Shown in pieces: positions 37,275-61,500 of a DNA stretch of 64,000 bases. The stretch is taken from the NCBI GenBank assembly GCA_013239625.1, contig MU056905.1:1943967-2007966 (forward strand), given 5' to 3'. Source of the DNA: Lama guanicoe. Lineage: Eukaryota. The translations under genes were made by a program, and so were the position numbers. Below the pieces are notes generated by a model that was not told where the DNA came from, searched no databases, and saw nothing but the letters and a program-made list of their open reading frames with translations. The stretch's first letter is position 1. Each line of letters opens with the position of its first letter.

Positions 37275-37883
37275 ATGAGTTGTCAGATCTCGTGCAAATC
37301 TCGAGGAATAGGAGGAGGAGGTGGAGGAGGATTCCGGGGCTTCAGCAGTGGTTCAGCTGTGGTCTCCGGTGGGAGCCGGCGATCAGCCACCAGCTTCTCC
37401 TGCTTGAGCCGGCACGGTGGTGGCGGCTTTGGCAGTCAGAGCCTTGCTGGTCTTGGAGGGACCAAGTACATCTCCGCTAGTGTGGCTGGAGGAGGTAGAA
37501 GCTTTAGCTCCATTGGAGGATTTGGTGGCAGAAGAGGTGGCTTTGGAGGTGGCATCGGCTTTGGAAGTGGCATCGGCTTTGGAGGAGGCAGTGGCTTTGG
37601 AGGAGGCAGTGGCTTTGGAGGAGGCAGCGGCTTTGGAGGCAGCCGTTTTGGTGGAGGTGGTAGAGGCCGGTTTGGAGGTGGTGGTGGCTTTGGAGGTTTT
37701 GGAGGTCCTGGTGGCTTTGGGCCTGGAGGATTCCCTGGTGGAGGCATCCACGAAGTGTCTATCAACCAGAGCCTCCTGCAGCCTCTCAACGTGAAAGTTG
37801 ACCCAGAAATACATAATGTGAAGTCCCAGGAGCGGGAGCAGATCAAAACTCTCAACAACAAATTTGCTTCCTTCATCGACAAG
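37275..37883 (+). CDS. KRT2: KRT2 exon 1 (coding part)
   Basis: atcATGA..FASFIDK|gtgagt. Confidence 0.94.
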
Positions 37884-40800
37884 GTGAGTCACGAGAAGCT
37901 GACTCCATCTGATGCTCAGGATTGCCCTACTTTCAGTGCTAATCGGACAGCAAATGACAGAGATTTTTTATTTTAGGAGCCATGGGTGTGGTCATACTGA
38001 CCTGAGTAGTTGCCAATACCCACGTGGGAAAGATGCTGACTTCGTGGGCTACATCTTTCATAACAGTCTGCAGTCAGGGATTATTTGTGCCTTTGGCTTT
38101 ATTGTTTCAGCCTAAACAAACAATACTTATGGAAAATTCTGAAAATCACAGAACAGATATAGACAAGTAATAGACGGACTAGTTTAGGCCAAGTGATAGC
38201 AGGTTTTGGAAGGGATTAGTAAGACATCTTCTGAGATCGTCCTTCCTTCCCTAGAACTGACTGCTGTATTACATTCGGGGAAGTTGAACCTGAGGTGTCT
38301 ACTTGGGGATGAACGCAACTCCTGACTTCAAGAGAAGTGTTCTCAGTTTTGTGACTCATAAGGCCTTTATTGGTGCCACTTTGGAGTGTGACAGGCTTTC
38401 TCCCATTTCAAGGCTGAGGAACCTGTCTAAGGGATTTACAAGGCTCTTCAAAACCAGGTCAAGGAACCCTGCCCTCCAGGGCTCTCACACTCATAACCCT
38501 TAGGAGCGGTGCCAGTGGATGCCTGGCTTTTGGTTTTCCCCAGAATTTATGGGACCTTTGCCAGGAATTCAACTAGAATCGGGAGGGAGATGGCCTGGAG
38601 TGCTGGGAGCAGCTGGAACCAAAATAGTGGGCAGTGAAGTAGGGGAGAGTTCTCTGTGTGGAGAGCACCAGGCATCACACTAGGAGCCTACTGAACTTTC
38701 CAAGTGTGGAGGCAGAGAGCTCAGAACCTCTGTCTGGCAGGATCTGGCCTCCCGCTGGTGAGGATGAAGCCACATAGTTGTCTCCATCACCCGAGGCAGG
38801 ACCAGAGCTGACTCTGGCGTGTGTGGCCTGTTGAAGGGAGGGGCAACCCAGAGCTCACGCGCTTTCCCTCTGGTCACCGCAGGTGAGGTTCCTGGAGCAG
38901 CAGAACCAGGTGCTGCAGACCAAATGGGAGCTGCTGCAACAAATTGACGTCAGCACCCGTACCACCCGCCTGGACCCCCTCTTTCAGGAGTACATTGGCA
39001 AACTGCAGACTTACGTGAACACGCTTTCTGCAGAAAGAACATCACAAGATTCAGAGCTGAACAACATGCAGGATCTTGTCGAGGATTTTAAGAAGAAGTA
39101 GGTGGCAGAGTAAAAACTCTACGTGGAGACAAATGTTGATCTGAGCTGTCCAGTCGTTGCCCCAGAAAACCACTCATCTTCCAGTTGCATTTATGGTGAT
39201 GAAGGGGAGGAGCATCTGTATCTTTGCTGGTTATTTGTGAGGAAGACAGTTAGGGCTTTAGAGATAATGTTTTTTACATGTTTTCAATGATAGAAAAGCA
39301 TCCTCATTTGGGGATATCATACTTTCAGTTTAAACCAAAGTGTTTTACATTCCCAGAGAATGGAGTCTTTTGGGTGAATCCAGTAGGAAAAAGAAAAGAA
39401 AAAAGTAAACAAACCAGAGCTAATCTAACAGCTGCGTCCCTGTGTCCCAACAGGTATGAGGATGAAATCAACAAGCGCACAGATGCTGAGAATGATTTTG
39501 TGAAACTTAAAAAGGTGAGTGAGAGAATGTCATGGCCGAGGTGGGAGTGAGGGCGCTTCAGCAGCCCGCTGGGCTCAGACAGACAGGCCGGAGCACACCT
39601 CTGCGTGACAACAGCAGTAACCAGGGAGAGGGGTGAGGTGCATCCATGGCTGGTTCTCCTGGAATAAGGGTATCTCTGTAGGTCAAGCTTCTGGACACGT
39701 TCTGCACATTTGCTAGAGCATTTCCTATCAACAGCCGACTCGAAGCCTATATTGAATCATGCAAGATGCAAACAGAGAAAGCACTTCATTCGTCTTCTAA
39801 AGGGCTGAGGAGGGAATGGGACTTCCTTAGAATGCCTGTTTAAAGATGCTATCAGTTGGGCCGACCAAGGTTTGAGCCAGAAGGCAAAAGTGTGGATTTT
39901 CAGCCTGGTTCCTGCAGAGGCTTTGGTGTAAAATTCAGAGAATTCAGGAGAGGTGGGATGGACAGGCAGGGTGGGAGAATTGAGGACTGTTAAAAGCCAC
40001 AGAGGCCATTGCACTCCTTAGTAGAAAAACACGTCTCAAGCCAGAGGGAGAGAATGCTTGACAAAGCTTGGTCCCATCAGAGCTCTGATGGTCTTGGGGG
40101 AGTGTGAGCAGTGACGGGGGAGTGTGAGCAGTGACGTGGGCGTGGAGCCCCCAGCAGACGTGCACTGCAGACTCCATGCCAAATGAGGTCCTGTGGGGAT
40201 GTGGCTTATCTGGGATTTTGGAGAGCAGCTAACAGGGACTGGCTGGAGGAGCGGCAGGGAGGGGGCAGGGCCCGTACACAGAGTGCTGCAAGATGAGGGG
40301 TGGGGGGCATGAAATTCATCAAGGGCCCCTGACCTTCCCTGTAGGACGTGGACAATGCCTACAAGAACAAGGTGGACCTGCAGGTCAAGGTGGACATGAT
40401 AAACCAGGAGATTGACTTCTTGAAAATCCTCTTTGATGCGGTAAGGAGGCTGCTCCTAGAGAGATCCTTATTTCCACCCTTCTCACCAAAGGAAGTCCCT
40501 CCCTGTTGGTGGGTGGAATTCATTGACGGCTGACTTCAGCTTGCCCTGGTTCCAGGCCACAGGGAGCATCTGTGGAGTAGATCTTGGAGGAGAGAAACTT
40601 TTTCCTCTGATGTCACAACTTCTCTCTCCAGCTCCTCTTAGGAAGAGACCTGTCCTGTTTCTATCCCTATGTCCAAAATTCTTCAAAGGTCAAAATGTAA
40701 TATATTTACCATTTACCTGCCCAAGTGCACACACGTGACTTCTGAAACAGGAAGTACAATTTAAGGCATTTGCCATCGACTGACTTCTTCCTGGGGGCAC

Positions 40801-43800
40801 TTTATCAAAACTGCATAAATGGTGAAGGCTGTTAACTAGGAGGCTCAGAAATGCAGAGTCCTCCCCATAATTCTCAGTGCGACCTGGCAGAGACCTAAAA
40901 AATGGCAGCTGTATTGTTTTAAATCCCCCTCAGTGCACGACTAGTCCGAGAGTCTGTATTTTCCAAACAGCGAGAAGGGGAATCTCCCTTAATTGCCTTT
41001 GACTGTGGGCAGGGATGCCATGGCCAGACCTCTTGTGTGTTGCAGGAGCTGTCTCAGCTGCAACAGAATGTCACGGACACCAATGTCATCCTGTCCATGG
41101 ACAACAACCGCAGCCTGAACCTGGACAGCATCATCTCCGAGGTCAAGAGCCAGTATGAAGAGATCGCCCAGAAGAGTAAGGCTGAGGCTGAGGCGCTGTA
41201 CCACAGCAAGGCAAGTTCTGGGAGGGCAGGGAGAGCCCCGGCTTCGTCTAGCAAGCTGGGCTCCACCCCGGCTAGAAGGGTACCATCAGCTTAGCGGTGT
41301 TTTTATCTAGTGGAAATCGGGCATCATTCCCAAGAAGGAGTGTCCACAGTGCCCCAAATGCCCTCAGTCGAAAATGGCAGAGTCCTTTTCGGGGTGTGAG
41401 ATGGTTCCCCATCACCTAAGGAAGCAGACATGACTTTCGGCTTGGCTGACCCTCCCTGGACAGTATCAGACTTTCTTGGCTCCTGCCAAGCTACCCCCAA
41501 GCTGCCACTGTCCTCTCCCTGCACAGTACGAGGAGCTGCAGATCACTGCTGGGAAGCACGGAGACAGCCTGAAGGAGGTCAAGATGGAGATCAGCGAGCT
41601 GAACCGTGTGATCCAGAGGCTGCAAGGGGAGATCTCCCAAGTGAAGAAGCAGGTGGGGCGCGGCCCGGGAACTCCGGTGGCTCCCCTGGCTGAGTGGGGC
41701 TCGGGGTAGGGTGGGAGGCTGGGTATAGATGTGTGTGTGAAAGAGAGAGAGAGAGAACTGAGAAATCGAATCTAGCAGGTGCTAATCCCAAACGCCTCAA
41801 GTGTAATATAATTTAAGATTTATAACAATTTTTAGAGTGGTCTAAGAGGCATCCTTAAGTGGGGATTAGTGCAGGGAGAGAACTGTGTTTGACTTCTGGA
41901 TTGCTTTCACAGGTGAAATGGAACAATAACACATAATATATGAAGCTAGAGGTCATGGCTTGCTGTGTATCGCAGGCATCGCTTCCTGTTCATACCCGTT
42001 TGTCCTTGGAAAAAGCCCTAAGCACCAGCCAGCTGTGTGACGCAGGGGCAGTGAGGGTTGCAGGCACTTGGCCTGGGGTTGGACATTAGCTTTTTAAAAA
42101 ATGAAAAAAGATTTGTTTTGTTTTGTTGGTTTTCTTGTTTATTTATTGTTTGTTTATTTATTTGTTTATTTATTTGATGGAGGTACTGGGGATTGAACCC
42201 AGGACCTCGTGCGTGCTAAGCATGCGCCTTACCACTGAGCTATACCCTCCCACATTGGACAGTAGCTTTGGAAGAGATAATGGGGCAGAGAGTGGGGCAG
42301 AGAGTCAACTCCGCAAGGAACAGAAGTTCTGGGAAGTGCCACACATTGCATGTTTTCGTCTGCAGCTGTAAAGTGGGATAATGACTCTGGTCCTGGGTTA
42401 TGAGGATCAGAGGTCATTATGGAGAAGGTGTATGGGTCCAGTCAAAGATGACTTGGGAAGACAGGGGATCAGAGACAGCAACAAGTCTCAGCAGGCTGTT
42501 TGCGGCTTGCATTAACTCCAAGGGGACCCAACACTTTTACGGCCAGTGGTTGTGGCTTCTCACACCCTGTACACCTCTGCTCCCTCTTCCCCTCTGCCAG
42601 ATAGACTCTACTTTCTGCACCAACAGAAACCTTTTCTCCTTCTCTCCTAGTGTAAGAATGTGCAAGACTCCATAGCAGATGCTGAGCAGAGGGGAGAGGA
42701 TGCCCTCAAAGATGCCCAGAACAAGCTGTCTGAGCTGGAGGACACCCTGCAGANNNNNNNNNNNNNNNNNNNNNNNNNNNNNNNNNNNNNNNNNNNNNNN
42801 NNNNNNNNNNNNNNNNNNNNNNNNNNNNNNNNNNNNNNNNNNNNNNNNNNNNNNNNNNNNNNNNNNNNNNNNNNNNNNNNNNNGGGTCCACCCTTTCCTC
42901 TCCCGGAGCCAGGGCTGGAGGCAAAGGCAGGGAAAGCGGGGCTGGGGCAGAGCCGTCTGATGGCTGAGAGCCGACGTCACTGTGTTCCTCGAGCAGAGAT
43001 TCAGAACACAAAGTAACACTAAGAGCTGTAGACTTCTCAGTTTGGAACAACTAACAAGGCAGATGAAATTTTAAATTAAATTAAGCAGTAAGTTAATCTT
43101 GGTCTTTTCTGAGAGAGAAAACAACTTCTATCTGCACAGATCAGTCCTAGACAGTCTCTGGGTCTGCAGGGTGTGTGGCCTTTTCCTCCCTCTGCTTTGT
43201 GACCCAGAATAGGGAGGTTGTGGGTGGGAAGGAGCTGACTGGCTGGGGCATGTGCACCCAGAGCAGGTGCTCAATCTAGTTCTTTGCAGGTATCTGGAGT
43301 GACAAATGGAACCATTCACTAACTTCCAAAGGGAGCCTTTCACTCCTCTGTGGTCTGAGACCTTTGTCAGTGCCCTCAGCATCCCTGGTGACTAAATCCC
43401 GCAGAAGGGACTAGAAGGGAAAAGCTACCAGGGCCACCAGCAAGCCAGTATGACAGAGACGGAGGGCTTTGCTCTGGCTGTGGCTCGGTACCCGTTGGCG
43501 AGGCCAGGCCTCCTCTCTCCAGCTTGCAAGAGGAAGTGGGAAAGATTTCAGATGAAGCGAGGAGGGTCGGGCAGGAGGGCGGGATAGGGAGGCTGCACAG
43601 AGTCACAGTTCTCTCTGAATTGCATGTTCACAGTGTAGCCTTGCTTCAGAGTTTCTGCTGTGGCTTGGATTCTGAGTATCAGACTCCCTAAAATGGATTT
43701 AAATAAAACTGTGGCTTGTCAGGTCAGAAGTGAATTTGCTTTTGACCATTTTTATCAGAGCGAAAAATTGAGAGCTGGATTGGGATGCCAGGTCTTGTGG

Positions 43801-44581
43801 AAACGTGAAGCCCGTCCCCCTCTCTGTGACCTGGCAACGCAGAGGAAAAAGGAGCTGTGTAAGGCCCTGGTGGCTGAGTTTCGAGGCTGATAGGCACGTG
43901 CGTAGGGAGGCTGTAAAATAACATGTAGGCTATACCTAAGCGCTCTGCCAGGAGTTAACATTCTCTCCCTCTCTCTGACAGGATGTCTGGAGACCTCAGC
44001 AGCAGTGTGACTGTGTGTAAGTGATGGGGTGTGGTCCTGCCCGAGGGGGCGGTGCGTCCAGCGGGCGGAGGCGGGGCCGAGGCAGTCAGAACTGCCGCGT
44101 AACAGCATCTCTCTCTGCAGCTGTCACGAGCAGCACTGTCTCTTCGAACGTGGGGTCCAGGGCTGGTTTTGGAGGCCATGGTGCTGGAGGTAGAGGGTCC
44201 GGTTCTGGAGGAGGAGGATACAGCTCTGGAAGCAGCAGTTATGGCTCCGGAGGCCGAAGGTCCAGCTCCAGAGGCAGTGGTGGAGGAGGCTCTGGCTCTG
44301 GTGGCGGGTATGGCTCTGGAGGAGGATATGGTTCTGGAGGAAAACACAGCTCTGGAGGCGGCTCCAGAGGAGTCTCTGGCTCTGGGGGAGGGTCTGGTTC
44401 TGGAGGAGGATACAGTTCTGGAGGTGGCTCCATAGGGGGCTCTGGCTCTGGGGGAGGGTACGGCTCTGGGGGCGGCTCCAAAGCGGACTTTAGCTCCGGA
44501 AGGGGAGGTTCTAGCTCAGTAAAGGGTGGTTCTGGCTCAGGTGAAGGTCACGGTTCCAGCGTGACCTTCTCTTTTAGATAA
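37275..44581 (+). CDS. KRT2: Keratin 2 (K2e), type II. join(37275..37883,38883..39097,39454..39514,40345..40440,41046..41210,41527..41652,42651..~42871[gap],43982..44016,44121..44581)
   Basis: N-terminus [59 protein letters not shown] and C-terminus GSSVTFSFR* are characteristic of K2e. The exon 7 end is inferred from the canonical 221-bp size because it falls in Ns. Confidence 0.94.
38883..39097 (+). CDS. KRT2: KRT2 exon 2
   Basis: cgcag|GTGAGG..AAGAA|gtagg; 215 bp. Confidence 0.94.
39454..39514 (+). CDS. KRT2: KRT2 exon 3
   Basis: aacag|GTATGAG..AAAAAG|gtgagt; 61 bp. Confidence 0.94.
40345..40440 (+). CDS. KRT2: KRT2 exon 4
   Basis: gtag|GACGTG..GATGCG|gtaag; 96 bp. Confidence 0.94.
41046..41210 (+). 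CDS. KRT2: KRT2 exon 5 (GC donor)
   Basis: tgcag|GAGCTG..AGCAAG|gcaagt; 165 bp. Confidence 0.9.
41527..41652 (+). CDS. KRT2: KRT2 exon 6
   Basis: cacag|TACGAG..AAGCAG|gtggg; 126 bp. Confidence 0.94.
42094..42251 (-). mobile_element. tRNA-Ala-derived SINE (vic-1-like) in KRT2 intron 6
   Basis: Reverse strand reads GGGAGGGTATAGCTCAGTGGTAAGGCGCATGCTTAGCACGCACGAGGTCCTGGGTTCAATCCCCAGTACCTCCA plus an A-rich tail; TSD TTGGACATTAGCTTT / TTGGACAGTAGCTTT. Confidence 0.9.
42651..42753 (+). CDS. KRT2: KRT2 exon 7, visible 5' part (rest in N gap; expected end ~42871)
   Basis: cctag|TGTAAG; [34 protein letters not shown] then Ns. Confidence 0.9.
42754..42883. other. Assembly gap covering the end of KRT2 exon 7
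   Basis: run of Ns. Confidence 0.99.
43982..44016 (+). CDS. KRT2: KRT2 exon 8
   Basis: gacag|GATGTCT..GTGT|gtaagt; 35 bp. Confidence 0.93.
44121..44581 (+). CDS. KRT2: KRT2 exon 9 (tail, stop TAA)
   Basis: tgcag|CTGTC..; Gly/Ser loops; GSSVTFSFR*. Confidence 0.93.
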
Positions 44582-45003
44582 AGATGGAGTCCTGCCCTTG
44601 ACTCTCCCACTCCAGAATGTAGATTACTGTCTCTGTCCATCTGATTGACAGGAAGTCAAATCTGGTCATTCACCTCTGATGGTATCTTTTAGGGGAGAGG
44701 GATGCCCACATACAGTTTCTGAAATATTTTCTCTCCAAACCAGTTAGCTGGAGCCAGTGACACCCTCAGTCCCCGAGGGAAGAGTCACACATTGTTAGGT
44801 GTGTGCTTCCAGCTGTGCCCCCATTCCTGGCCCCTTCTTGCATTGCCCATTGGGCGGTCCTTTTTCCAACCAATATTCCATTGAGGACCCCATCTCGAAG
44901 CCTGCACCTTTCCCCTGGCAGTGCCCCCAGGGAAATGTGTTTCTGTGTACATAGCCCTCTTGTTGGCTCAGTGTCTAAAGTGCTGTGGTCTTGGTGTCTG
45001 TGC

Positions 45004-45009
45004 AATAAA
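45004..45009 (+). terminator. KRT2 polyadenylation signal
   Basis: AATAAA followed by GT-rich tgtggtgtgtgttt. Confidence 0.85.
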
Positions 45010-46139: not shown

Positions 46140-46310
46140 TACCTTAAAATCACCAGGGGAGCTCATTTAAAATGCACATTCCTGGTTCCAATGACCCCCT
46201 CTGCCCTGAGTTTTCACTACAGAAGATTGGAGTGGAGCCCAGAAATATGCATTTTAAACAAGCTTCTAGATGAGTCTGATGTTGGTGATGCGGGGAATCA
46301 TGCTTTGAGC
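46140..46310. mobile_element. MER5-type hAT remnant
   Basis: aatcaccaggggagctcatttaaaatgcacattcctgg..atgcattttaaacaagc..gatgagtctgatg. Confidence 0.65.
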
Positions 46311-46801
46311 AAGGAGGGTACAGGATGATGGCGCAGGGGAGATAGCTCAGATTCCTGGCTGGGGTCCAGAGGAGGAGACCAACCAGGCGAGGTGGCTGAG
46401 TCCTGCCAGTGTGCACAGGTGTGTGGAATGACTTCTGCCAGGCCTGCAGCTTTAGGGGGAAGGGGAGAATTAAAGGTCCGAGATGGGACCACTGGCCAGT
46501 GTAGTAACCTGCTTTTTCCTGGCCTGAGTGAAAAGTCATGGGTGGAGCCTGGGTCCAGAATGTTCCCTCAGACAGCTGCTGTCATAGTTATGGTGTGACC
46601 AAAGGAAGAGATCAGGGTCCCTGGCCTGCCGGAGTGTTTTCTAAAGGAAAGGCTGCTTCGCTTCCCTGCGGTGGGGTTTGGAGTCTCACAGGGCTTGACT
46701 GCTTCTATTATAAAAATAATACTTGCTCATTATCTCAAACTTGGAAAAATAGTTGAAAAATTGAAAAACTAGCCATTACAGGAAATAACTAGCATTAACA
46801 T

Positions 46802-46826
<25 letters not shown>
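46802..46826. repeat. (CA)n microsatellite
   Basis: about 12 CA units. Confidence 0.9.
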
Positions 46827-46832
<6 letters not shown>

Positions 46833-46904
46833 ATAGATATTTTGAATGCATTTTTCTAAATTATTTAGCTTTAGTCATTTTATTTACTTCTTTATTTAAT
46901 GTTG

Positions 46905-47800
46905 AATATTTTTTTACTGAGTTATAGTCAGTTTACAATGTTGTGTCAATTTCCAGTGTAGAGCACAATTTTTCAGTTATACATGAGCATACCTGTATTC
47001 ATTGTTGCATTCTTTTTCTCTGTGAGCTACCACAAGATCTTGTAAATATTTCCCTGTGCTATACAGTATAATCTTGTTTATCTATTCTGCATATGCCTGT
47101 CAGTATCTACAAATTTCGAACTCCCAGTCTGTCCCTTCCCATCCCCCTCCCCCTTGGCAACCACAAGTTTGTTTTCTATGTCTATGAGTCTGTTTCTGTT
47201 TTGTATTTATGTTCTTTTTTTTTTTTTTAGATTCCAACACATATGAGTGATCTCATATGGCATTTTTCTTTCTCTTTCTGACTCACTTCACTTAGAATGA
47301 CATTCTCCAGGGACATCCATGTTGCTGCAAATGGCGTTATGTTGTTTTTTATGGCTGAATAGTATTCCATTGTATAAATATACCACATCTTCTCTATTCA
47401 ATCATCTGTCAATGGACATTTAGGCTGTTTCCATGTCTTGGGTATTGTAAATAGTGCTGCTATGAACATTGGGGTGCAGGTGTCATTTTGAAGTAGGGTT
47501 CCTTCTGGATATGTGCCCAGGAGCGGGATTCCTGGGTCATATGGTAAGNNNNNNNNNNNNNNNNNNNNNNNNNNNNNNNNNNNNNNNNNNNNNNNNNNNN
47601 NNNNNNNNNNNNNNNNNNNNNNNNNNNNNNNNNNNNNNNNNNNNNNNNNNNNNNNNNNNNNNNNNNNNNNNNNNNNNNNNNNNTAGCCATTGTGGCAGGT
47701 GTAAAGTGATACCTCATTGTAGCTTTGATTTGCATTTCTCTGATAATTAGTGATGTTGAGCATTTTTTCATGTGCCTGTTGATAATTTGTATTTCTTCCT
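46905..47800 (-). mobile_element. 5'-truncated L1 (ORF2 C-terminus + 3' UTR), with an internal gap
   Basis: Minus-strand peptides [25 protein letters not shown] and LPYDPGIPLLG..TCTPMFIAALFTI.KTWKQPKCP are L1 ORF2; 3' UTR is similar to 26058-26248. Confidence 0.92.
47549..47683. other. Assembly gap inside L1
   Basis: run of Ns. Confidence 0.99.
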
Positions 47801-48689
47801 AGTCCCACTACACACCCTCTGGCAATTGACCTGATAATAATCTTCATAACAATAATGATAACAACACAATTACCCCTTAATTAGGTGATAATGACACCAA
47901 CTTGACTGCCAAGCAAGGCTTGAGGACCTGACATTAATTATTTTACAAACAAAAGCTAAGCTTTCCCATAAAGAGGGAAAATAAGGGTCACTTTTGCTCA
48001 CCTTCTAAAGCCAAATAGAAATAACATGCCATCTCATTGGCACAGGTGACAGAGCAGGGAGAGAACAGAGGGTGAGCATGTGCGTATGTGGATATGAGTG
48101 TGTTGCAGAGCAGTGATTAGGGATGAAAATCTGGTTAGTGTATAAAGTTCCCAAACAGAATGAATTTCCCATAAGTGTATTAGAAAGTATGGCAGAGATG
48201 GGGAAGATCAAGGTGGGTGACGGAAAAGTAGGCAAGTCTTTAAAAGGAAACCTAGGATACAAGATCTTCTCCATAGACAGTGGGGACCCAGGGCTCTATT
48301 CACACCCCTTCTAGCCTGGCAGTTCTCACTGGACCTTTATTTCAAACTGAACTCCACCTGGACTGTGGTTCTAAGATGTATTTGCTTCTCTTATATTTTT
48401 ATCCTCATCTCTGGAGAAGGGGAGACCCATGAACTCAGATCTCATGTTATCTCCAGGTGGACGATCCACACTGGCTTTCCCAGGGGATGAGGTGGGGCCA
48501 GGCAGGCATGCCTGCCTCCTCCAGGTCCCTGCAGATCTTCCTCTCCCCTCCCACCTTGGTTGAGCACCCAGGGTCTGTGAATCTTCCGGAGGACTGGATG
48601 CCCCAGAATGAGTCAAATGGGGCTTTAGAAAAGCAAATCAAAACAAGTTTTTGATAAACCATGTTTGCAGGTTCCCGGGGTGATGACCA

Positions 48690-49054
48690 TCAACGTGGAT
48701 GACTGAGAATTGATAGTGCTAATGGAAAAGTGTGCGCCTGTCCATACTTCAGGACTAAAGTAGAAGTGGAGCTTTGCTTTTGCACTTGGCAGTGGTTGCT
48801 GCTCTTGCAGATCAACAGCAAGCTTCCTGCCCCTCCCGGCAATACAGCTGAGCCATTGCTGAAGCCGCTGAAGCTGCTGAAGCTTTTGCTCTGGTACCTC
48901 CAGGCATAGCTCTGTCTGCTCATGGTGACTCAGGGGACTGAGTGACACTGAGAAGGTGGGAAGAAGGTGTCTCAATGTTTCCCTGCTGGGGTGCAGAGGG
49001 CTCCCCTTACATATCTCCTGGAGTCGGCAGCTGGCTCCAAGTTCATGGGTTTGA
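48690..49054 (-). pseudogene. Inverted type II keratin exon-1/promoter relic (77-aa ORF 48923..48690)
   Basis: ORF starts MSRQ..SFSGFSNGSAVLPGG. 21/23 nt match (48844-48866, -) to the KRT2 head (37338-37360). Degenerate TATA (TATGTAAGGGGAG) 90 nt upstream and AAACCC box 34 nt further. No rod exons found. Confidence 0.7.
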
Positions 49055-49229
49055 CTCCCTTGAAGCTGAAAATGGCAAGAAAATAAATCATGCTGTCTAC
49101 TTTGGAACAGTACTTCAGATGATTACTGCTGAGTTAGCAGGGTTTTTTAATTATTATTTATCAACTATCTGCTGACCAAGGTAATATGAAGCATGTGCGA
49201 TTATACCCCCAAATCTCTCAGATAAGGTG

Positions 49230-50000
49230 TTTTCTGGCATCTATTGGTTATCTCTTTTCATTGACTTTGAGATCTTCTTTGTTCTTGTTATGACAAGTGA
49301 TTTCTGGTCAGAACTTGGGTCTTTGGGTCTTATTTTTGTTGCCTTCTCTGACATTACCCTAGCAGGGGAAAAGGGAATAGTGCCACCCCATTACTGCCAG
49401 GTGGAATGTGAAGCCTAGGTTCCCTACCTGGTGTCTGCCATCACTGCCATCACTGCCATCACTGATGGATCTGGGACTTGTTCCTGTCTGGTGGGGGTGA
49501 AAGTCCCGGCTCCCACCTTGGCCTTCCCTGACATCCCCAGATGCCAGGGGAAAGGGGCAGTTGGGGTACCTTATAGCCTGATGGGTACAGAGTCCAGGAT
49601 TCTTGCTCTGCTTTAGCTGGAGGGCGACGGGGAGGGGCTGCAGTGTTTTTTGTGGTGTTTGGTTGGAGTAGAGTGGTTACTCTCTGTAAGTTTTCTGTCT
49701 TGCTAGGCTGCCCCATCCCTGGCGCTTTGGCTAGAGAGATTAGGCTTCTGTTAGGGCTTTAAAAAAACATCTGTGCCCTCTTCTTCTAGGTTGTCACTTT
49801 CTTCTGCTCCAAGTCTGAAATACAAGAAACAAATAGAAAACCCAGAGAACCCACTACCACGTCTTCCTTTGGCTCCTGAGGTCCCTAGCTGGCATACCTT
49901 CTTCTCTTGTCCTTTAAGAGTTTTCCTACATTTGTTTTATATATAATATCCAGGTTTTTATTTGTTGTAAGTGGAAGAATGATGTTTACACCATTTCTTC
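49230..50000 (-). mobile_element. Ancient L1M 5' region remnant
   Basis: tttggctagagaga, ggtccctagctgg..ttcttctc and tttgttttatatataatatccagg resemble L1MC-type 5' ends (from memory). Confidence 0.55.
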
Positions 50001-52383
50001 TGCTAGAGCTGTGTCAGAAAAAAATATGTCTATTCTATTTTCTTGGATGAGAAATACTAAATATTCTTTTAAAACATGATTTTATTGCTCCTGAGGCTGA
50101 TGGGGGTTGATTTTCTGCCTCCTTTGTGCTGACTCATCAGAGATACCTGCCCTAGAGACCTAGGCAGAAGCTAATGGCAGAACTGCCCCTCTGTGGGAAA
50201 CGGGGCTGACTGAGTCATTGTGTGAAGATTAGATGAGGGTTCAGCAGGCATTGAACTTCCCCTGGTAAGGGCAGTGACAGGGTATGAGATGTAAGGGGCC
50301 CACTGTTTGAAAACCCGCTAAGGAGAGTTTAAGGTAGGTGCTAAGGAGCCTGTCCTTAGAGGGAATGACTTTCTGAGGATCCTTCACCACTGATTCTGGG
50401 TGGAAGGTAAAGAGGACTTGGGGAGGACAGGATTAGGGTCTTGTCCTCAGGAAACTTTCTGGCAGTTTGGGAGGGTTGGCACACACCTGGGATACAGGCA
50501 GAGACATGGAATTAGAGCAGACAATTGGTACAATTTGGGGAGGCTGGCCAGAGAGGAGTGGCTGGATTGAGATGAGACAGAGAAGAGTCCCTGGGGGGGG
50601 GGCCTCTGTGGCAGGTTCCCAATGAGGGAAGGCCAGGGTGGGAGAGGGGAAGCAAGGCCCATGTGGGGCGAGGGGCTGGCTGCACTCACGCACTGCACTG
50701 CAGAGCTGGCATTCAGAGTGCGAACACTTGCTTTCAGCCCTTAGGGAGTGAGCTCAGGGCATGTAACAGCAGTTTGCAGTTTTGCTGAGACACGGGTCTG
50801 GATCACGTTCATCCTGATGCTGACGTGTGGAAAGGGGCCAATTAGGGAGGGATCCTGGCTGGGACACTCAGCATCCTCATCACAGCACTGCCTTGCCTCA
50901 CTCACTGTGCTGTATGAAGAAATTGCAAAAGGATAAAGCCTTGTGTCTAGTGAGAAAAGACCAAAAGGATTGCCAAGTACCATGCTGCTATAGTGAAATT
51001 GAGACCATCTAAGAAAATAGTTCTTCTTACCTAGAAAATAGCTGTTTTGTATAAAAAAGAAAGGGAGGTTGAATTTGGCAATTGCTTGTTATAATAGCAG
51101 TAGAAACATCATAATACAGAATAAGGTCAAAATCTCTGCACAGAAATGGAAACAAGAGATTGGTAAATTGAACATTATATGGAGGAAATTACATTCTGCA
51201 TATGTTTGGGATTTGGGAATTGTGAAACTCTTGGTCACATACTTTGGTAACATCAAGGGTCTCATAGAATTCAAATGTTTGTCCTCCTCTCTAGAATTGT
51301 GACCTAGGCTTCTGTCTTATTAATTCATGACCCCAGAGCCTATTACAGTACCTTGGACAGAGTCAGCCCTCAACATAAGTGTGTTAAATGAATGGATGGA
51401 TGAATGAACAAGTATGTGGATGGCTGGCTGGCTGGCTGGCTGGACAATATATAAGAGCTGCAGAGCTCTGAATGTGGGATCAGAAGATCAGTCAAATAGG
51501 TCTGCAAGGCTGGGGACTGCGTTTTGTTTGTTGGACGTTTGCATCCCGTGGGATTCATACAAAGAAAGGCTTATGAAATGTTTGTTGTCCTCAACCATCT
51601 GAGCCTTCGTTTTCCCATTTGTGAAAGGTGGATCCTCACATCTCCTTTCCAGGTCAAGTAGGTTAAATGAGCTTCTGTGTCTGAGGAGCTCTTTTAATGC
51701 TGGAAAGCCCTGCACCAGTGTCAGCCACCATGAATGGTGACAATTCCAATATTTCAAGGTCAAGGGTGGAGGCAAGGGGAGGGTACAGGGACAAAGTCAG
51801 TGCATGAAGGTGAAGGCATGCAGGGCAGCCTGGCTGGCCCAGAGGGGCAGGAGACGAGCCTGGGAGGGCACAGCAGGGGCCTGCAGCCAGAGGGCTGGGC
51901 GTGGATTCCTAGTGGGCTCGTTGCCCAGGGCCTTGGCCGGCCTTGAGAACTGTCTCCAGGAACCCTGGGAAGCCAGATTGCGGAGTCTCTTCCTAGCCAC
52001 ATAAAAGCAGTTCAGCCAGGGTCCCTGGAGCAGCCCATCTGATGCTGGTACAGTTGTGAGATCTCTCACAGATGATGCTGTCAATTAAAGGTCTCCCCTC
52101 TGCACCCCCGCAGTCCAGTACCGCCTGCCAAAGCCCTGGCGAGAGGCAGTTGAGGCTGTGAGAAGCCTCACAGCCAAGATCTTTCTAGGGATAATTTGGT
52201 CAGCCTAATTACCCCATGTTAATTAGATAAGACTCAAATTACAGGAGCAAGGCTTGCAAACCCTGCACTTTGGGGGATTTCAAGTTATTTACCCGATGTC
52301 TCTGATTTTGTTGGGAGAAAATGATTTCTTGCTTGCAGGCAAACTAAACCCACAAATTAGGGCAGTGTCTCCCTCCTGAGCCC

Positions 52384-52389
52384 TATAAA
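52384..52389 (+). promoter_or_regulatory. KRT73 TATA box
   Basis: TATAAA 95 nt upstream of ATG 52479. Confidence 0.85.
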
Positions 52390-52478
52390 GCTCAGGTCTC
52401 CCGCCTGAGACCACAGGCTGGTGAACTGCATCTCATCTAAGGGTTAGCTGCTCTTTCCAGCTCTCTGGCCTCCCCAGC

Positions 52479-52925
52479 ATGAGCCGCCAATTCACCTGCA
52501 AGTCGGGAGCTGCTGCCAAGGGGGGCTTCAGTGGCTGCTCAGCTGTGCTCTCAGGGGGCAGCTCGTCCTCCTATCGAGCGATGCACAAAGGGCTCGGCGG
52601 GGGCTTTGGAAGCCGGAGCCTGTACAGCCTGGGGGGTGCCCGGATCACCTCCTTCAACATGGCCAGCGGCAGTGGGCGGGAAGGGGTTTATGGTTTTAGC
52701 CGAGGCCGGGCCAGCGGCTTTGCTGGCAGCATGTTTGGCAGTGCGGCCCTGGGGCCTGTGTGCCCGACTGTGTGCCCTCCAGGGGGCATCCACCAGGTCA
52801 CCATCAACAAGAGCCTCCTGGCCCCACTCAACGTGGAACTGGACCCCAAGATCCAGAAAGTTCGTGCGCAGGAGCGGGAGCAGATCAAGGCACTGAACAA
52901 CAAGTTCGCCTCCTTCATCGACAAG
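52479..52925 (+). CDS. KRT73: KRT73 exon 1 (coding part)
   Basis: agcATGA..FASFIDK|gtggg. Confidence 0.93.
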
Positions 52926-55900
52926 GTGGGACTTTCTGGAGAAAGCTAAGCCCTAGGATATCTACAAAGCCGTAAAGCCTGGCCACTCCTCTCATGGGAG
53001 CCAGACCAGCTCAGACTCTGGTCGAAAAACAGACTTGTAGCCCATATGATACACCCCAAACTATATAGCGAGGCAGATGGGGATGAGTGGTGCCCTAGAG
53101 CAGTGGTTCTCCAAAGTGGTACCCAAACTGGCTGCGCCAGCATCACCTGAGCACTCGTTAGAAATGCACATTCTCAGACCCCACCTGGTATCTACTGAAT
53201 CACAAACTCTGGGAGTTGGGCCCAGGACTTGTGTGTTAACAAGCCCCCAGGTGAAGCTGATGCACACTTGAGAACCACTGAGGAACAAAGGGGTAGGAGG
53301 GTTTTGGGAAGCGGAGACTTCCAGAGCTTAGACGAGCAGGGGACACTTATCAGGGGTGACGGTGAGGTAGGGTGGTGAGGCATGAGTAGGAGTTTGCAGG
53401 ATGGAGGTGGAGAAAGGCAACCTGGGGAGAGAGAGCAGTCACATGAAGAACAATAGGCCTTGTCTGGAGACTGGGGAGACCTTGGGTTTGGGTGTTGGGT
53501 GAACGGTGGCATATTGTGAAGAGCACAAGAAGAAGTTTGAACTTGACCCTGTAGGTCAGGTGGAACCATCAGGGGGTTTTAAGCAAGGGAATAGTATGAT
53601 GCTTGTAGACGTAACTTGAGAAGGCTGCTTCTCCCCTTGGGGAAATGCTCTGAGTTCACAGAGAACTGGACATAAAAGCCACACAGGAGGGCCCAAGACT
53701 CCAGATCAGCTGAGCACCTGCCTCTGGCTGGGCTGGGAGAGGCCATGACTGGGGAGATGGAGAGCAGGCAGAGCACAGGCCGGGCCACCAGGCCGGGAGT
53801 CAAGGTGCACAAGAACCAGTACGGGCCAGCTTACGTGTCTAAGGACTCACCCCACAGAGGGGGTCCAGGCTGACCATCAGCACTGGTCCAGGCAGGTGAG
53901 GACAGGTGCACAGGGAACAGATCTTGACTAGAGGGAAAGGAAGATGGTGAGGCCCCCTCCTGAGGCCACTCCTGCCCCCCAAAAGAGAACCTCGGTTGGA
54001 CGAAGGGCCCAGGTGGGGAGGGGTACAAGTGCCATTTTCTGAAGGATGAAGCTTATGGAGCATCAGAGAACACAGCCACCGTCCAGGAAAGGAAACCCTA
54101 CGGCCTCTCACCATTAACTGTCTGTTGATTGGGGTTCCAGGTGCGGTTCCTGGAGCAGCAGAACCAGGTACTGGAGACCAAGTGGGAGCTGCTGCAGCAG
54201 CTGGACCTGAACAACTGCAAGAACCACCTGGAGCCCATCCTCGAGGGCTACATCGGCAACCTGCGGAAGCAGCTGGAGGCGCTGTCCGGGGACAGGGTGA
54301 GGCTGGACTCGGAGCTGAGGAGCATGCGGGACGTGGTGGAGGACTACAAGAAGAGGTGAACGGAGACCCTGGGCCCAGGCCGACAGCTTCCCGGGACTGG
54401 GCTTTCCCCGCAGACACTGCAATGTCTGCCTCTGACGTCGGGGCACTGAGCTCAGGTGGGAGTGATCTGTCCTGAGCTCCTCTGCCCGGGCAAGATGAGG
54501 CCCTTCTCTCGGTGGCCAGGAGGGCTGGGCAGTGGGCAGCCAGCCTCTTGGGCAGTGGTGGGGCTGTCCTGGTGGGCGGCCGCCTCCTTGGCCCACTCCC
54601 TCCTGCTTCCCAATAGCGAGATTCCAAGGGTGAGTACCCCACAGCCGCTTGGGTCTTAAGCTCATCAGGTTGCCCCCAAGGTCCAAGGAACCCCCCTAGG
54701 CAGGGCAGGGAGATGGAATTTCTGCTGGGCTTCCTCGTCTCCCTCAGGCCCTGGACATTTGGGCCATGCTCCTCTGCCTGTCCCAGGGGACAGTCCGCCC
54801 AGCTTCCTCGGGACTAATGCTTGGGGAGGTGGGTGGGGTTACTGGTAGCGGTGTCAGGCAGCCAGGTGACACAAGAATGGTGGCTGAGAGGGGCAGTGGC
54901 GTGTGCCTGGGATTTGGACACTGAGTGGGAGGAGGAAGAACCTATTCACTCTTTAGGCTCCAGAGGAAAGCTAGAGCCAAACCATCGGTCACTTGGCCCG
55001 GAAGGGCGTTACTTCCTACCCCACCCACAATGCTGGCCATATATTCCTAGTGAGTTGGGCAGAGCTGCAAAGATGTAGAATAATATCTGTCAAAAGGTGT
55101 ATAACTTGGACATCTCGGTAGTCCTTTCACATGAGGACACACACACACGCACACTCTTCCCTCTGATGTTTCCTGCAGGTATGAGGAGGAAATAAACAAG
55201 CGCACGGCTGCTGAGAATGAATTTGTGGTGCTTAAGAAGGTGAGGAGAGGGTGCATGCCCCTCGGTCTCCCAGGGAGTGGAGTGTGGGGGGCGCGGGGAG
55301 ACTGGGGCCTGTGCTCCCTACAGAAGGGCCTGGAGCCGAAGTTCCAGAAGAAGGTGGGGGGGATTTGCAGCTTGGGGACATCTTGGGACACCTTGGTGTT
55401 TATCTAGCACACATCGCTTTGTCTGTCCCGTGTTTTGTGTAAATGGGCAGAAGTGCAGGTGTGGATGGTCCCTCCCCGGGCCATGCCCAGGGTGGATTGG
55501 AGAACAGGACATGCTTTGAGACGGGCTGCCGGGTTCCCCCTCCAACTCAGCCTGTCTTTGGCAAATTGCCCTTGGCTCTGACTGATCAACCATGTCGGGG
55601 ATAGGGCTTTTTTCTGTATCTTTGAAAATAGAGACAGTAAAAGGATTCCATCCTTGGATGGGGCAGAAGGCGTTCCAGGGGCATGAGGGTCTTGCTCAAA
55701 GTCTCGCAGTGAGTCCTGGGTGGAAGTTAGGTTCCTGCCTGTCGGGCCTTGACTCCACTCCCTGGGGCAGCCAGCCACAGAGCTGAGTGCCGGGGTGCCA
55801 AGTTCTTGGAAAGCCCTGTCTGGGCTTGAAGAAGGGTGACGTCAGGGGGTCTCTGGGGTCCCTTAGGACGTGGATGCAGCTTACATGAGCAAGGTGGAGC

Positions 55901-58516
55901 TGCAGGCCAAGGTGGACGCTCTGGACAGAGAAATCAAGTTCTTTAAGTGCCTGTATGAGGGGGTAAGTGTCCCCCAACCCCGCTCCCAGCTCTGCCTTGT
56001 GAAAGGACAGACATGGCAATGAGCGGTTACTTATCAGGAAATTTAAGAGTGCAGAGAATCCCCAACATTTGGAGGCTGGGAGCTCTGTAGATCAAAGCAA
56101 GAATGACATTTAACCTGATACCTCCAACTGACGTGTGCCATCAGTCCCAGCCTGGCCTCCAGATCTCCCAGTCTCACATATTTCTGGAAGCCATGGGACC
56201 CTAAGGGGCTCCCACTGATCTTCAGCCAAGCGCATTCTCATTTCTTCCTATCTTCCCTCTGCTGCCTGGGGTACTTCCTCAGGTCTTAAGTATGCATCCC
56301 CAGGGATGGATGTGGGAAGTCCTCACACCCTTTCCACCATGTCTATGACCATTTGTCTGTTGGCCAAGCTTCCATGAGCTCCCAGGTCCTTAGCGTCTCC
56401 TGTGTGGTGGCCGAGCTGTTTCCCCTCTGCCTTTTCCTCTTCTAACCTGTCTCAGGTGACAGACACAGGGGTTTTTACCATCTTGGGCTTTTTCAAACCC
56501 ATCCAGCAGTTTTCAGATGTGCTGTTGGAACCTCTGGACTGGTGGGCTCCATCTTTGTAAGTTTTGGGGGGTACAGCTTGCATCTGTTTGGGAGGGTCTA
56601 GGAGCACCCCTGCCGGGGCAGGTCCATCACCTTGGTACCTTCCTCTGCTCACAAAAGGCATTTCAGGCTTCCTTGTTTCCCCTGCAGGAGATCGCTCAGA
56701 TCCAGTCCCACATCAGCGACACATCTGTAATCCTGTCCATGGACAACAACCGGGACCTGGACCTGGACAGCATCATCTCCGAGGTCCGTGCCCAGTACGA
56801 GGAGATCGCCCTGAGGAGCAAAGCTGAGGCTGAGGCGCTGTACCAGACCAAGGTGGGGCAGCACGCCTCCCCAGAGTCACGTGTTCTGGGGTCTCTGGTC
56901 CGATCCCATGATCCACCATGGCCCCCTTGCTCTCTGAGAGCACAGCGTGGTCCCAGGCACTGGAGGAGGAGACAGCTCTGACCTTATGATCCACTGAGAC
57001 CACGCAATCATGAGAGGACACACACAGCTGAGTCTAAATGAACGTGTCATAGCATCATGAATGCTAGTGAGACAGAGGTTAGGGAACCAGGACCAGGTGG
57101 GGCAAGTCAGGAACAACGTCCTTGGAGGCAGAGAGTTTTGAACTGAGTCTGGGAAGGAGGAAAACATGGATAGTCAGCATCTCAACCCCCTCATTAATTA
57201 CAATAAATTATGGGGTCTCTTCAGTGTGATCTGAGACCAGGGAACTCCTACCTTTCCATTCAAGTCCAACTCCAAGGAGAATGGGGGAGTTTGAGTCTCT
57301 TAGATGTTAACTCCTCTAATGGGTCGTGGGTGGGAAAATGAGTCTTTAGATAACTTGGTTTCTCAGATCAAGAAGGCGGCTTCCTAATTGTCCTTTCTGT
57401 TTATCAGGATCCTTCTCAAGGGAAATCCACATTCTTGAGACCTTATCTTGTCCCTCCTTGCTACCCTAGGAGCAGAAGGATTTGACCTGCAGAGGCGGGA
57501 GGGAGGGAGGGTGGGAGACTTTCAAGGCCTAGGAGACAACTCAGGCCAGGGCTTCTTGAGAAAAGTTCAAACTCAAGTCCCCAGTTTCCAAATCCCTCTA
57601 CATTCCTGCTGCCAGCAGAATCGGAGGTGGCCATGTGGCCTTACCCCTCTGGATTGTTAATGACTAACGTTTAACTCCAGGGTCCTTCTGGAAGCGTTAG
57701 GCAGGTCTGCACAGACATGACTTGGGATCAGTTGCTGCTTGAAGTTAGTCACACGTGTGCTTCTCCCGTCAGGGGCAAGCGCTCACCGAGCAGAAGGTCA
57801 TCAGTGTCGTCCTAGCGACGGAGTTCTGAGGGCTTGTTGTTGTTGTTATTCCCCTTTTGATGGGAACACAGATGGAGGAGCTGGGGCTCAAGGAGTCTAA
57901 GTAACCTGCTAAGGCCATTGAGCTGCTAAGTGATGGAGCTGGATCTGAATCTCCATGGCTGACTGCCAATTCCATGGCTCTGGTTAAGACGCATTTAGGA
58001 TAAGGGCTTGGGGTGGGCTGGGAGCTGAATGGCAGGAGTTTACTCTCAATTTGCCTCAGGAGGAGATGGCCTGGTATCAGAACTGGGGAATCAGTGCCTC
58101 TGTTCTGGCCCGTAAAAGATGGGGACAGTGTGACCAGAAGCGGGAAAAGGCCGCCTATCCTGGCACAGTGTTAACCGCCCAAGACTAGCAGCAAAGATAA
58201 GACACAGGAGCACAGTGAGAAGCCCCCCTACCTTCCAGGGGACTTGGTATCTTTAAGAAGGACCCTGAATCTAGGGCCACCCTGGGGCCAGATAAGAGAC
58301 AACTGATAAGGCCAAGCACCCAAAGACAGGCAGGCAGTTACAGCTGCCAAAGTTCTGAATGTTATGTCTTTTTCTGTTTCCCAGTTCTGGGGTGCAAGTG
58401 TTGTGCTCTCTGTTGACTATTTAATGGATGACATCAAAGGCAGGACTAATCCCAAACTAGTAGATGATCCAAAATTCATGACTGGTGGTGGTGGGGTAAA
58501 GTGGAGTCTCCCCCTG

Positions 58517-58549
<33 letters not shown>

Positions 58550-61500
58550 GTGTTTCCATGCTCAGCAAGACTGCCAGTAACCTAGGGCTCAGCGGAGCTA
58601 TGAAGGGAGGAAGTCACAGAAAATACAGGTGGGCAGCCCATCAGCTCCCTCTTTGTTTCATGCACGCATGCATGCATGCATTCATTCATTCATCAGACCT
58701 ACTCTGAGTACCAGCCAGACCCTGTACTAGGTCCTGGGAATTCAGAAATAAAATAAGAGATCCCTGCTATTTAGTCATTCTGGGTTTGATGGGAAAGACA
58801 CAGAAACTGTGCTCACAGTACAGTATGGTAGGACCTATGGACTGGTATGCTGGGGGCTATGGGCACAGAAGTACACCCAACTTGGGGATTGAGGAAGGCC
58901 TTCTGGAGGAAATGAGTCTGCACTGGCCGAGTTGGAGCTGGCTAGGGCAAAAGGGAGGGTGAAGGGGAAGGGTTGTCCAGCTGGAAGGAGAGGCTCATGC
59001 AAAGACTCAGAGACTTGAGAGCACACGGGAAATTTCTGGAACTTGGGACTATTTGGCATGGGTGGAGAGCCAAGGAGGTGACAGGTAGGGTAAGTGAGAA
59101 GTACGTCTGGAGAGGCTGGTGGATGCCAGATCTCCAAGTATGTCGATGCCAGGCTAGGAGTTTGAATTTGACCTTGACTTTGAAGGGCTATAGGCAGAGG
59201 AGTATCATAATTGGAGTTGTACATTATTAAGTTGCAGCGTGGAGAGTATGGGACTTTTCGATAGTCCTAATGGCCAAATCTAACCATCAGTGTGGTCAAC
59301 TGTGTTTGAGGCAAATAAATACATCCAACGAACAGATGGTTGGGTGGCAGGCTGTTGAGAGGACTGGTGAAGCTGGGACCCCTGCCCACCTCTGCCACAC
59401 TCCCTGGGTAAAGACACAGTCTGCTGGTGAGCTCAGCTCCCTGTTTTGCTCTCTTCCCCTAGTTCCAGGAGCTGCAGCTGGCAGCTGGCCGGCATGGGGA
59501 TGACCTCAAATACACCAAGAACGAGATCTCAGAGCTGACTCGGCTCATCCAAAGGCTGCGCTCGGAGATCGAGAGTGTGAAGAAGCAGGTGAGGGGTTCT
59601 GGGAGTTCCCAGCTCACTCCCGAGGGAGGGGTTGTCAGCACTGTCAGTCACACACGTTCCTCCAGGCCCTTCTCCTTCTCTGGATCCTCTGCCTCAGAAC
59701 CCCTTCCTCAAATGGAAGCCTTGCTCTCATCCCTCACACTTAGCTCCTACCTGAATTCTGGAACAATTGGAAGGCTCTTTCTGGAAAGCCAAGTGGCTGA
59801 GAATGACAAGCCTCCCAGTCCCGGGCTGACAAGTCCCCATTGCCATGGATGTGGCTTTGCCCTAGGAGGTGGGGCAGGATGGGGGAGGGTCCAACCACAG
59901 TGAGAACTTGGTAGGGTGAAGGGAGGCTCAGGGTGCCTCAGAACTCAGGGAGAGAAAGTACCTCCCTGCCCTCAGTGCTCCAACCTGGAGACGGCCATTG
60001 CCGATGCTGAGCAGCAGGGCGACTGTGCCCTGAAAGACGCCCGGGCCAAGCTGGACGAGCTAGAGGCTGCCCTGCACCAGGGCAAGGAGGAGCTGGCCCG
60101 GATGCTGCGCGAGTACCAGGAGCTGATGAGCACCAAGCTGGCCCTGGACATCGAGATTGCCACCTACCGCAAGCTGCTGGAGGGCGAGGAGTGCCGGTGG
60201 GTGATGGAAGGGATCTTAGAATTTTGGAGCTGGAAGGACTTTAGGAATCCTCTGACTTAATTTCCCAGATGGGAGGTTGAGATCAGGCTGCTGGAGGGGC
60301 TGGAAATGCTTTTCAGGTCACCCACAAACATAGTCTTAACCGGCATCCAATAATGAGAGAGCGATCTCCTTTATAATTCTCCTTCCCGTCTTCAGACTAT
60401 GATAGGGAGAAAGCTTCAGTGTGGTGCTGTTGTGTCTTTAACACTACCCTGACACTTGCAAATATCCCTATTTAGTAAAGAGAGAGCAGATCCTAGGTTT
60501 AGAGTCTCTGGGCAGACAGCAATATCTAGTCAAAAATTTTTTTTAATTGTTTTATTTTTATTATATTTATTTTTACTGCTACTGTTTTGGTCTTTTTTGT
60601 TCAGGTAGTACTGGTTTCTATTTACCCCGCTGATCTAAAACTTCCTTTTAAGCCAAATCATTTTTGTTTCAAAAGGCAGAATCAAAGAAAAATACTAAAT
60701 TTATGACAGGATGAGTTGTCCATGGTCATAGCAATACCAGGAAGGGTGGTAGATGAAGCACTAACATTTGAAAACCCCTGTTTTAACCCAGCACTATTTT
60801 ATAAATAAAACCCAGTTTTATATAAGTGACTGCTCCTAAAATCGTACAGTGAGTTCCTTAGTGGCAACTCCTGAGGCTCATATTTCCACACGCGCACTTA
60901 TTCGGGCAGTAGACCCACAGGGGTGAAGCAGCGAGCTGAAGAGGAATTCAGTGGGAGGGCACCCGGGAGGCGGTGCTGCTGCTGGGGGCTCCGGGGTTGC
61001 AAGTTTGTACATCTCTGAAGTGGGAGGAGCGGGCTGAGGAAGGAGAGAGAGGATCTCAGAGACACGCAGGCGCGGTGCATGCCACCTGGCCAGCTGAGGG
61101 CTTGTGGAGGCCAAGCTAGGCTGGCTGATGACTTCAGGCTGGGCTGAGGGTAACCTGGATGCCACGTGATAGAGAAGCAGCTGTGTTTTTCTCCCCATGC
61201 AGGATGTCTGGAGAATACACCAATTCTGTGAGCATCTGTGAGTAGTTCACACCCCTGAAGGAATATTTTTAGCCCATTAATGAGCACAAAGTAAGTGGTC
61301 CTCTACCACCAAGACCCCCATGGAACAGCCTGGGTTGTGCCTGGCAGAGCACCATTGCCGTAATCGCCTCCTTTGATGAGACCTGCTGCCTCTTCCTCTG
61401 TGGAGTCAGCTCCGCATCGCATTCTGACACTCCACATTGACCCCTTCCCGGAAATCTCACCCATGCTAGGATGAGATTCTCCCCATTCTCTTCTGCCCCA

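Follow-up and report, generated by a model that had tools for sequence, protein, structure and literature searches.

The decayed type II keratin sequence that lies between KRT2 and KRT73 in the window (the whole stretch of DNA analysed here, 64 kb long) is very probably the 5′ stump of KRT128. It comprises the promoter, the leader and codons 1–46 of that gene, is likely dead, and would have been reversed in this lineage by a local inversion together with a deletion. We regard this relic as one more ordinary pseudogene fragment of the keratin cluster, in which the local inversion is apparently unreported.

A keratin start on the minus strand

The neighbourhood was analysed over 264 kb, that is, the 64-kb window and 100 kb on each side of it. 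This region contains 13 type II keratin genes, all on the + strand. Those in the window are the end of KRT77, KRT1, KRT2 and KRT73, and their names, like the others in the cluster, are the ones we presume from gene order and prior knowledge of the family. The first residues of KRT73 are equal to those of horse KRT73 at 36 of 40 positions, as counted by hand. The number and order of the 13 genes fit the alpaca list running from KRT78 to KRT6A in PMC6598621. An initial annotation of the window had described a keratin-head relic pointing opposite to every intact gene, and this orientation was confirmed, as all keratin genes of the window are on the + strand. Every element that it had placed on the − strand is present, namely the AAACCC box, the TATA, the AP-1 site abutting the ATG, a second AP-1 site, the AATAAA and the 77-codon frame, which runs from the ATG at 48923 to a stop at 48690. 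The features of the interval and of its two flanking genes are as follows.

37275..45009, + strand: KRT2, ATG through poly(A) signal, its tail facing that of the relic
48336..48341, − strand: AATAAA in non-keratin DNA, a possible, unproven poly(A) signal
48609..48615, no strand: second AP-1 heptamer, one of 15 in the window, within non-keratin DNA and probably incidental
48690..48785, − strand: 31 read-through codons and a stop, in non-keratin single-copy DNA behind the exon 1 break
48786..48923, − strand: very probable start of KRT128 exon 1, codons 1–46 (keratin head start), from a hand alignment with horse KRT128 and a profile match
48932–48926, − strand: AP-1 heptamer TGAGTCA, which is also the Kozak-like context of the relic ATG
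48924..49013, − strand: keratin core promoter and pyrimidine-rich 5′ leader
49013–49007, − strand: decayed TATA, TATGTAA, inside the relic core promoter
49047..49052, − strand: AAACCC box, possibly homologous to other type II keratin upstream boxes, a weak assignment
49240..49995, − strand: old dispersed repeat upstream of the relic promoter, from genome matches
52479..61244, + strand: KRT73, ATG through exon 8, facing the relic head-to-head, the two ATGs being 3.5 kb apart

A DNA profile was built from positions −150 to +140 around the start codon of the 13 paralogues, with the relic left out. It matched 48964–48826 (−) with an E-value of 2.5e-7 in the 264 kb, the best of the 11 matches with E up to 5 that did not belong to the training set, and a whole-exon-1 profile agreed with it on the relic. 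The first 138 coding nucleotides scored above 100 of 100 shuffles against 3 of the 13 paralogues. The best of these was KRT2 (z 7.3, with 0 of 100 shuffles as high), to which the relic is 66% identical over 106 columns, and the previously noted match of 21 out of 23 nt to the KRT2 head codons was reproduced. The next 146 nt scored above all shuffles against 0 of the 13 paralogues, and therefore the keratin part ends at around codon 46. Likewise, the read-through segment (48690..48785) reached a best z of only 2.2 against the 13 paralogue first exons and bore no likeness, by eye, to horse KRT128. On the other side of the ATG, the 150 nt upstream of the relic were compared with the upstream regions of the 13 paralogues and gave z values of 3.1–5.5 for 5 of them, scores that none of 100 shuffles reached. 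The Pfam profile PF16208 (keratin type II head) matched the whole first exons of KRT2 and KRT73, and matched neither the 77 aa of the relic, nor its first 46 aa, nor the first 46 aa of KRT2. Neither Pfam PF00038 nor the rod exons, which extend from the end of exon 1 through exon 7, had a match at the relic.

The relic is, thus, a piece of a decayed type II keratin gene, as had been proposed, and this origin is beyond chance. It is an unprocessed (duplicated or unitary) pseudogene, which retains a genomic promoter and lies inside its parent cluster, with its coding part disabled. The earlier description of a keratin mini-gene with a 77-aa ORF holds for codons 1–46, which are keratin-derived. 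It does not hold for the other 31 of the 77 codons or for the AATAAA, which come from non-keratin DNA behind the exon 1 break. Both flanks of this break are single-copy in the genome, according to a genome match search.

The distance from TATA to ATG in the relic, 90 nt as first reported, compares with 91 nt in KRT1 and 99 nt in KRT2 (both by script) and 95 nt in KRT73 (hand count). The accessory motifs, in turn, carry little weight as evidence for the relic. AATAAA occurs in 376 out of 1,734 bins of 600 nt, a chance of approximately 0.22 per 600 nt, and the window contains 39 copies of AAACCC. Of the 13 paralogues, 6 carry an AAACC box no more than 200 nt from the ATG, at distances varying from −133 to −187, whereas none of the 13 has the AP-1 heptamer in that range. 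Two AP-1 sites inside 720 nt are seen in 8 of 722 bins, a post-hoc figure. The old repeat upstream of the promoter, which we take to be L1M-type, has 41 other genomic matches at 67–83% identity (40 scored of 290 candidates). A younger LINE-like repeat, with many copies at 63–86% in the 264 kb, occupies 46840–47800, between KRT2 and the relic.

Probable identity with KRT128 and the reversed layout

The relic occupies the place of KRT128 or KRT128P, between KRT2 and KRT73, the human order being KRT73-KRT128P-KRT2-KRT1 (PMC5573215, S3 Fig legend). In the horse, KRT128 is LOC100063179, a 10-exon, 514-aa model with low confidence and low RNA coverage (Balmer et al. 2017, PMC5573215; sequence in File S2), and KRT128P is reported as missing in the dog (PMC5573215). 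The names have been swapped, so that the KRT128P of NCBI is the KRT125P of Schweizer et al. 2006 (PMC5573215, S3 Table; PMC2064177).

We aligned the relic with horse KRT128 by hand, codon by codon, the horse model being one to which its own authors assign low confidence. In this alignment, 92 out of 120 nt and 27 out of 40 amino acids are equal. By block, the equal positions are 29 of 39 nt in codons 1–13, 9 of 9 in one copy of a 9-base unit, 18 of 27 in codons 23–31 and 36 of 45 in codons 32–46. The indels amount to 18 extra nt in the window and 12 extra in the horse, and the 9-nt unit is present in three copies within relic codons 1–46 versus one in horse KRT128. The likeness ends after codon 46. 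Since the relic exon 1 is nearer to horse KRT128 than to any of its 13 own paralogues (66% at best), we identify it as the start of KRT128. The initial guess that it might be an orthologue of KRT128P is, therefore, borne out by position and by sequence against the hand-aligned horse KRT128.

Horse KRT128 and the relic share the KRT2–KRT73 interval and 46 colinear first codons. However, the horse gene is a full model in tandem with its neighbours, whereas here only codons 1–46 are present, reversed. Human KRT128P, likened to the relic by place only, also lies between KRT73 and KRT2 and is an unprocessed type II keratin pseudogene of the epithelial kind, but it is a 1590-bp piece on the strand of its neighbours, located 10–12 kb past the KRT2 end. 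The five other decayed exons of the present cluster are rod or rod-start pieces on the + strand, in contrast to the relic, which is reversed and has kept its promoter and start codon.

That the relic is instead a partial copy of KRT2 exon 1 in inverted orientation, or that its reversed direction reflects an assembly error, is very improbable. KRT2 is indeed its best own paralogue (z 7.3), and KRT2 duplications are described at this place in the horse (PMC5573215), but horse KRT128 matches better and does so across all 46 codons, including codons 32 to 45. As for the assembly, there are no N bases between 47683 and KRT73, and the sequencing runs speak for the layout. Out of 24 listed runs, 18 hold 0.81–1.00 of the sampled words; all 18 are guessed to be DNA and 5 are possibly the source. 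None of the runs with this sequence is recorded as RNA, which counts neither for nor against transcription. Four runs were aligned to this stretch. Run X18 covers 47900–49400 in three contigs with one listed difference, and its contig at 47988–48875 spans the exon 1 break, as does a contig of run X19. An X18 contig of 3,537 nt, aligned over its first 437 bases, starts at 48964, and colinearity would place its end at 52500. In KRT73, the earliest 31-base word in common with a paralogue starts at 52476, which gives an expected contig end of 52505. The two predicted ends are 5 nt apart, and the length of the contig therefore supports the layout. An independent DNA run thus supports the flipped arrangement, with the contig end deduced from its length. 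The single piece from run X17 was another copy of the old repeat, and stretches left uncovered by X17, X19 and X20 carry no weight.

The direction of the relic is opposite to that of KRT2 and KRT73 here, while the gene is in tandem with them in horse and human. The horse KRT128 exons descend on chr6 from 69,724,743 to 69,718,133, on the strand given as 'minus', like KRT2A and KRT73, and the strand of human KRT128P is also given as 'minus', as for its neighbours (PMC5573215). The KRT2 end and the KRT73 start are separated by approximately 7.4 kb in the window, compared to 24.2 kb in the horse, 26.0 kb in the human and 23.0 kb in the dog. No rod exons accompany the relic, in agreement with the initial annotation: seven exon profiles retrieved nothing under E 0.1 in 44700–52400, and the same profiles detected five decayed exons in other parts of the 264 kb (E 3e-7 to 3e-13). 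A whole-genome search with exon 2 returned 32 matches out of 37 scored, of which 4 were off the contig and none fell inside the KRT2–KRT73 interval. Given the lack of rod exons, the reversed direction and the short interval, we conclude that the gene has lost its body and that the remaining stump is reversed. Based on the tandem strands in horse and human, the reversed orientation is read as a derived inversion and not as another gene. One candidate was rejected: an exon-8-like stretch with an acceptor-like site at 50411–50381 (−), with E 0.017 among nine profiles and unlike horse KRT128 exon 8 by eye, is probably due to chance.

In the proposed scenario, the ancestor would have carried a full KRT128 between KRT2 and KRT73, in tandem with both. 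Two events, in either order, would have followed: a flip of the promoter-bearing piece and a loss of about 16 kb that took exons 2–9 and the remainder of exon 1. They would have left a frame that now reads on into unrelated DNA up to the first stop. Flip and deletion would leave a stump without an effect visible to selection, and low-level minus-strand RNA may cross it. The exon 1 break predates the split from a relative diverged by approximately 3%, since the X19 contig, which belongs to this relative, spans it. The reversed, head-only state of the KRT128 locus is apparently unreported, although the locus itself is known in human and horse. No report of an inverted, head-only KRT128 was found in the literature searched, most subscription papers lying outside it.

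Selection on the frame and signs of transcription

Runs X19 and X20 both derive from the approximately 3% diverged relative. The X19 contig covers relic codons 10–78, where the frame is open and contains one 9-base unit fewer. Compared with the window, it carries 7 substitutions in frame, all 7 of them non-synonymous, and no stop. With synonymous sites at 23%, the chance of finding 0 of 7 synonymous is 0.16 if the frame is neutral and 0.008 at a dN/dS of 0.3, and these 7 substitutions gave no sign of purifying selection. Divergence is 3.5% in frame versus 2.9% in an X20 contig located nearly all outside it. After at least 3% divergence, the frame is still open, with 3 out of 3 indels in frame, two of which involve the 9-nt unit. 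As 9.7 of 204 sites are stop-making, 7 random substitutions would leave such a frame open in about 7 cases out of 10.

By hand counts, the relic and horse KRT128 differ by 8 synonymous and 20 non-synonymous changes, and the first 40 codons of KRT73, used as a control against the horse, by 9 and 6, respectively. The counts are small, and the Fisher p of 0.057 does not fall below 0.05. The horse KRT128 model reads, by eye, FIDEV and IATYHK, as opposed to FIDKV and IATYR in the keratin genes here. Because it departs from these conserved rod motifs, the horse lineage may account for part of the non-synonymous excess. Selection on horse KRT128 may also be relaxed.

These data bear on the functional head-only microprotein suggested in the initial annotation. 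A selected 77-aa chimeric product, made up of 46 keratin-head residues and 31 new ones, is exceedingly improbable. Its ATG lies in a good context and its frame is open in both the window and codons 10–78 of the relative; against it, the 7 out of 7 non-synonymous substitutions, albeit a small number, argue against a peptide under selection, and the open frame is readily obtained by chance. Furthermore, a keratin without a rod does not assemble into filaments. The protein collections searched contained no such protein, all being weak negatives for a short, low-complexity query. An exact look-up of the relic product found none, two word-index searches at E 10 confirmed none of their 22 and 223 candidates, respectively, and a metagenome scan confirmed 0 of 600 pattern matches. 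A phmmer search of 1.84 billion representatives retrieved only two matches, both to repeat-rich microbial-type proteins; we discarded them as noise, as they aligned mostly outside the keratin part.

Runs X19 and X20, which come from one study and are guessed to be RNA, were chosen because they hold this stretch. Their contigs cover 48615–48897, 48287–48670, and 49266 to beyond 49400. The first two fit a unit that begins close to the ATG and stops shortly after the AATAAA, with nothing further 3′; the X20 contig ends at 48287, 3′ of the AATAAA. The X20 contig at 49266 carries an 18-base A tail, read on the − strand, inside the old repeat. This tail may mark where a minus-strand RNA from upstream is polyadenylated, or may reflect a run of A in the genome of the relative. 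The tailed piece starts upstream of the relic promoter, and the RNA, therefore, need not come from that promoter; read-through that starts in the old repeat or at the KRT73 promoter would also account for it. Antisense RNA exists at KRT73 in human. Taken as they are, with no start, strand or level and with DNA as a possible source, the contigs are a weak hint that the relic is transcribed at a low level.

It is unlikely that the flipped promoter has been kept as a working regulatory element, either producing a short polyadenylated minus-strand skin RNA or acting as a KRT2–KRT73 enhancer, with effects on its neighbours. The promoter spacing is kept, and the contigs of the two guessed-RNA runs together cover 48287–48897. 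Additionally, 6 of the 15 AP-1 heptamers of the window fall inside the 7.4-kb interval, at 45710–50217 (post-hoc p 0.005), and this AP-1-rich stretch is a possible enhancer region. However, the runs come from a single study, their kind is guessed and they were picked for holding this stretch. The contigs give no start, strand or level, and the A-tailed piece begins upstream of the promoter. Moreover, the TATA is degenerate and the divergence looks neutral. A bolder version, in which the inversion killed KRT128 and turned its skin promoter, such that camelids would now make a short polyadenylated antisense RNA tuning KRT73/KRT2 or giving a chimeric keratin-head peptide, is also quite unlikely. 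If true, a fibre-producing lineage would have gained a new gene out of the ruins of an old one, placed head-to-head with KRT73, a hair-follicle gene, and tail-to-tail with KRT2.

Other keratin remains and the wider cluster

With the relic read as a reversed KRT128 stump, the known states of the locus comprise a full model in the horse, a pseudogene in the human, a reported absence in the dog and a reversed stump here, which is a modest addition. In a lineage bred for fibre, it points to a local inversion within the keratin cluster and to a loss of approximately 16 kb. The relic could be of use as a marker in phylogenetic work, and its small ORF is a spurious one that annotators should avoid; it would be more important only if the reversed promoter were active and needed.

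Further keratin remains were observed in the 264 kb. The end of a decayed type II keratin exon 1 is located at L010:3397–3507 (+), with E 3e-13, between the presumed KRT3 and KRT77, where there is no intact gene. At this place, human and dog have KRT76, KRT126 and KRT127, according to the tables of PMC5573215 and, in part, to general knowledge, and KRT76 does not figure in the alpaca list given in PMC6598621. Gene loss in this lineage is, therefore, possible at the presumed KRT3–KRT77 place. Two pairs of decayed exons 5 and 7 lie between the presumed KRT71 and KRT5.

L017:4588–4692, + strand: decayed exon piece, E 8e-10
L017:7516–7606, + strand: decayed exon piece, E 4e-8
L018:5673–5762, + strand: decayed exon piece, E 3e-7
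L018:8001–8209, + strand: decayed exon piece, E 7e-9

These pairs appear to be the remains of two further type II keratin genes, which are not among the human pseudogenes whose places were given. Finally, two non-coding blocks upstream of KRT73 in the window, at 52219–52359 and 52000–52044, are 72–78% like DNA upstream of the presumed KRT71 (E 8e-19 and 0.006, respectively) and would represent shared regulatory blocks.
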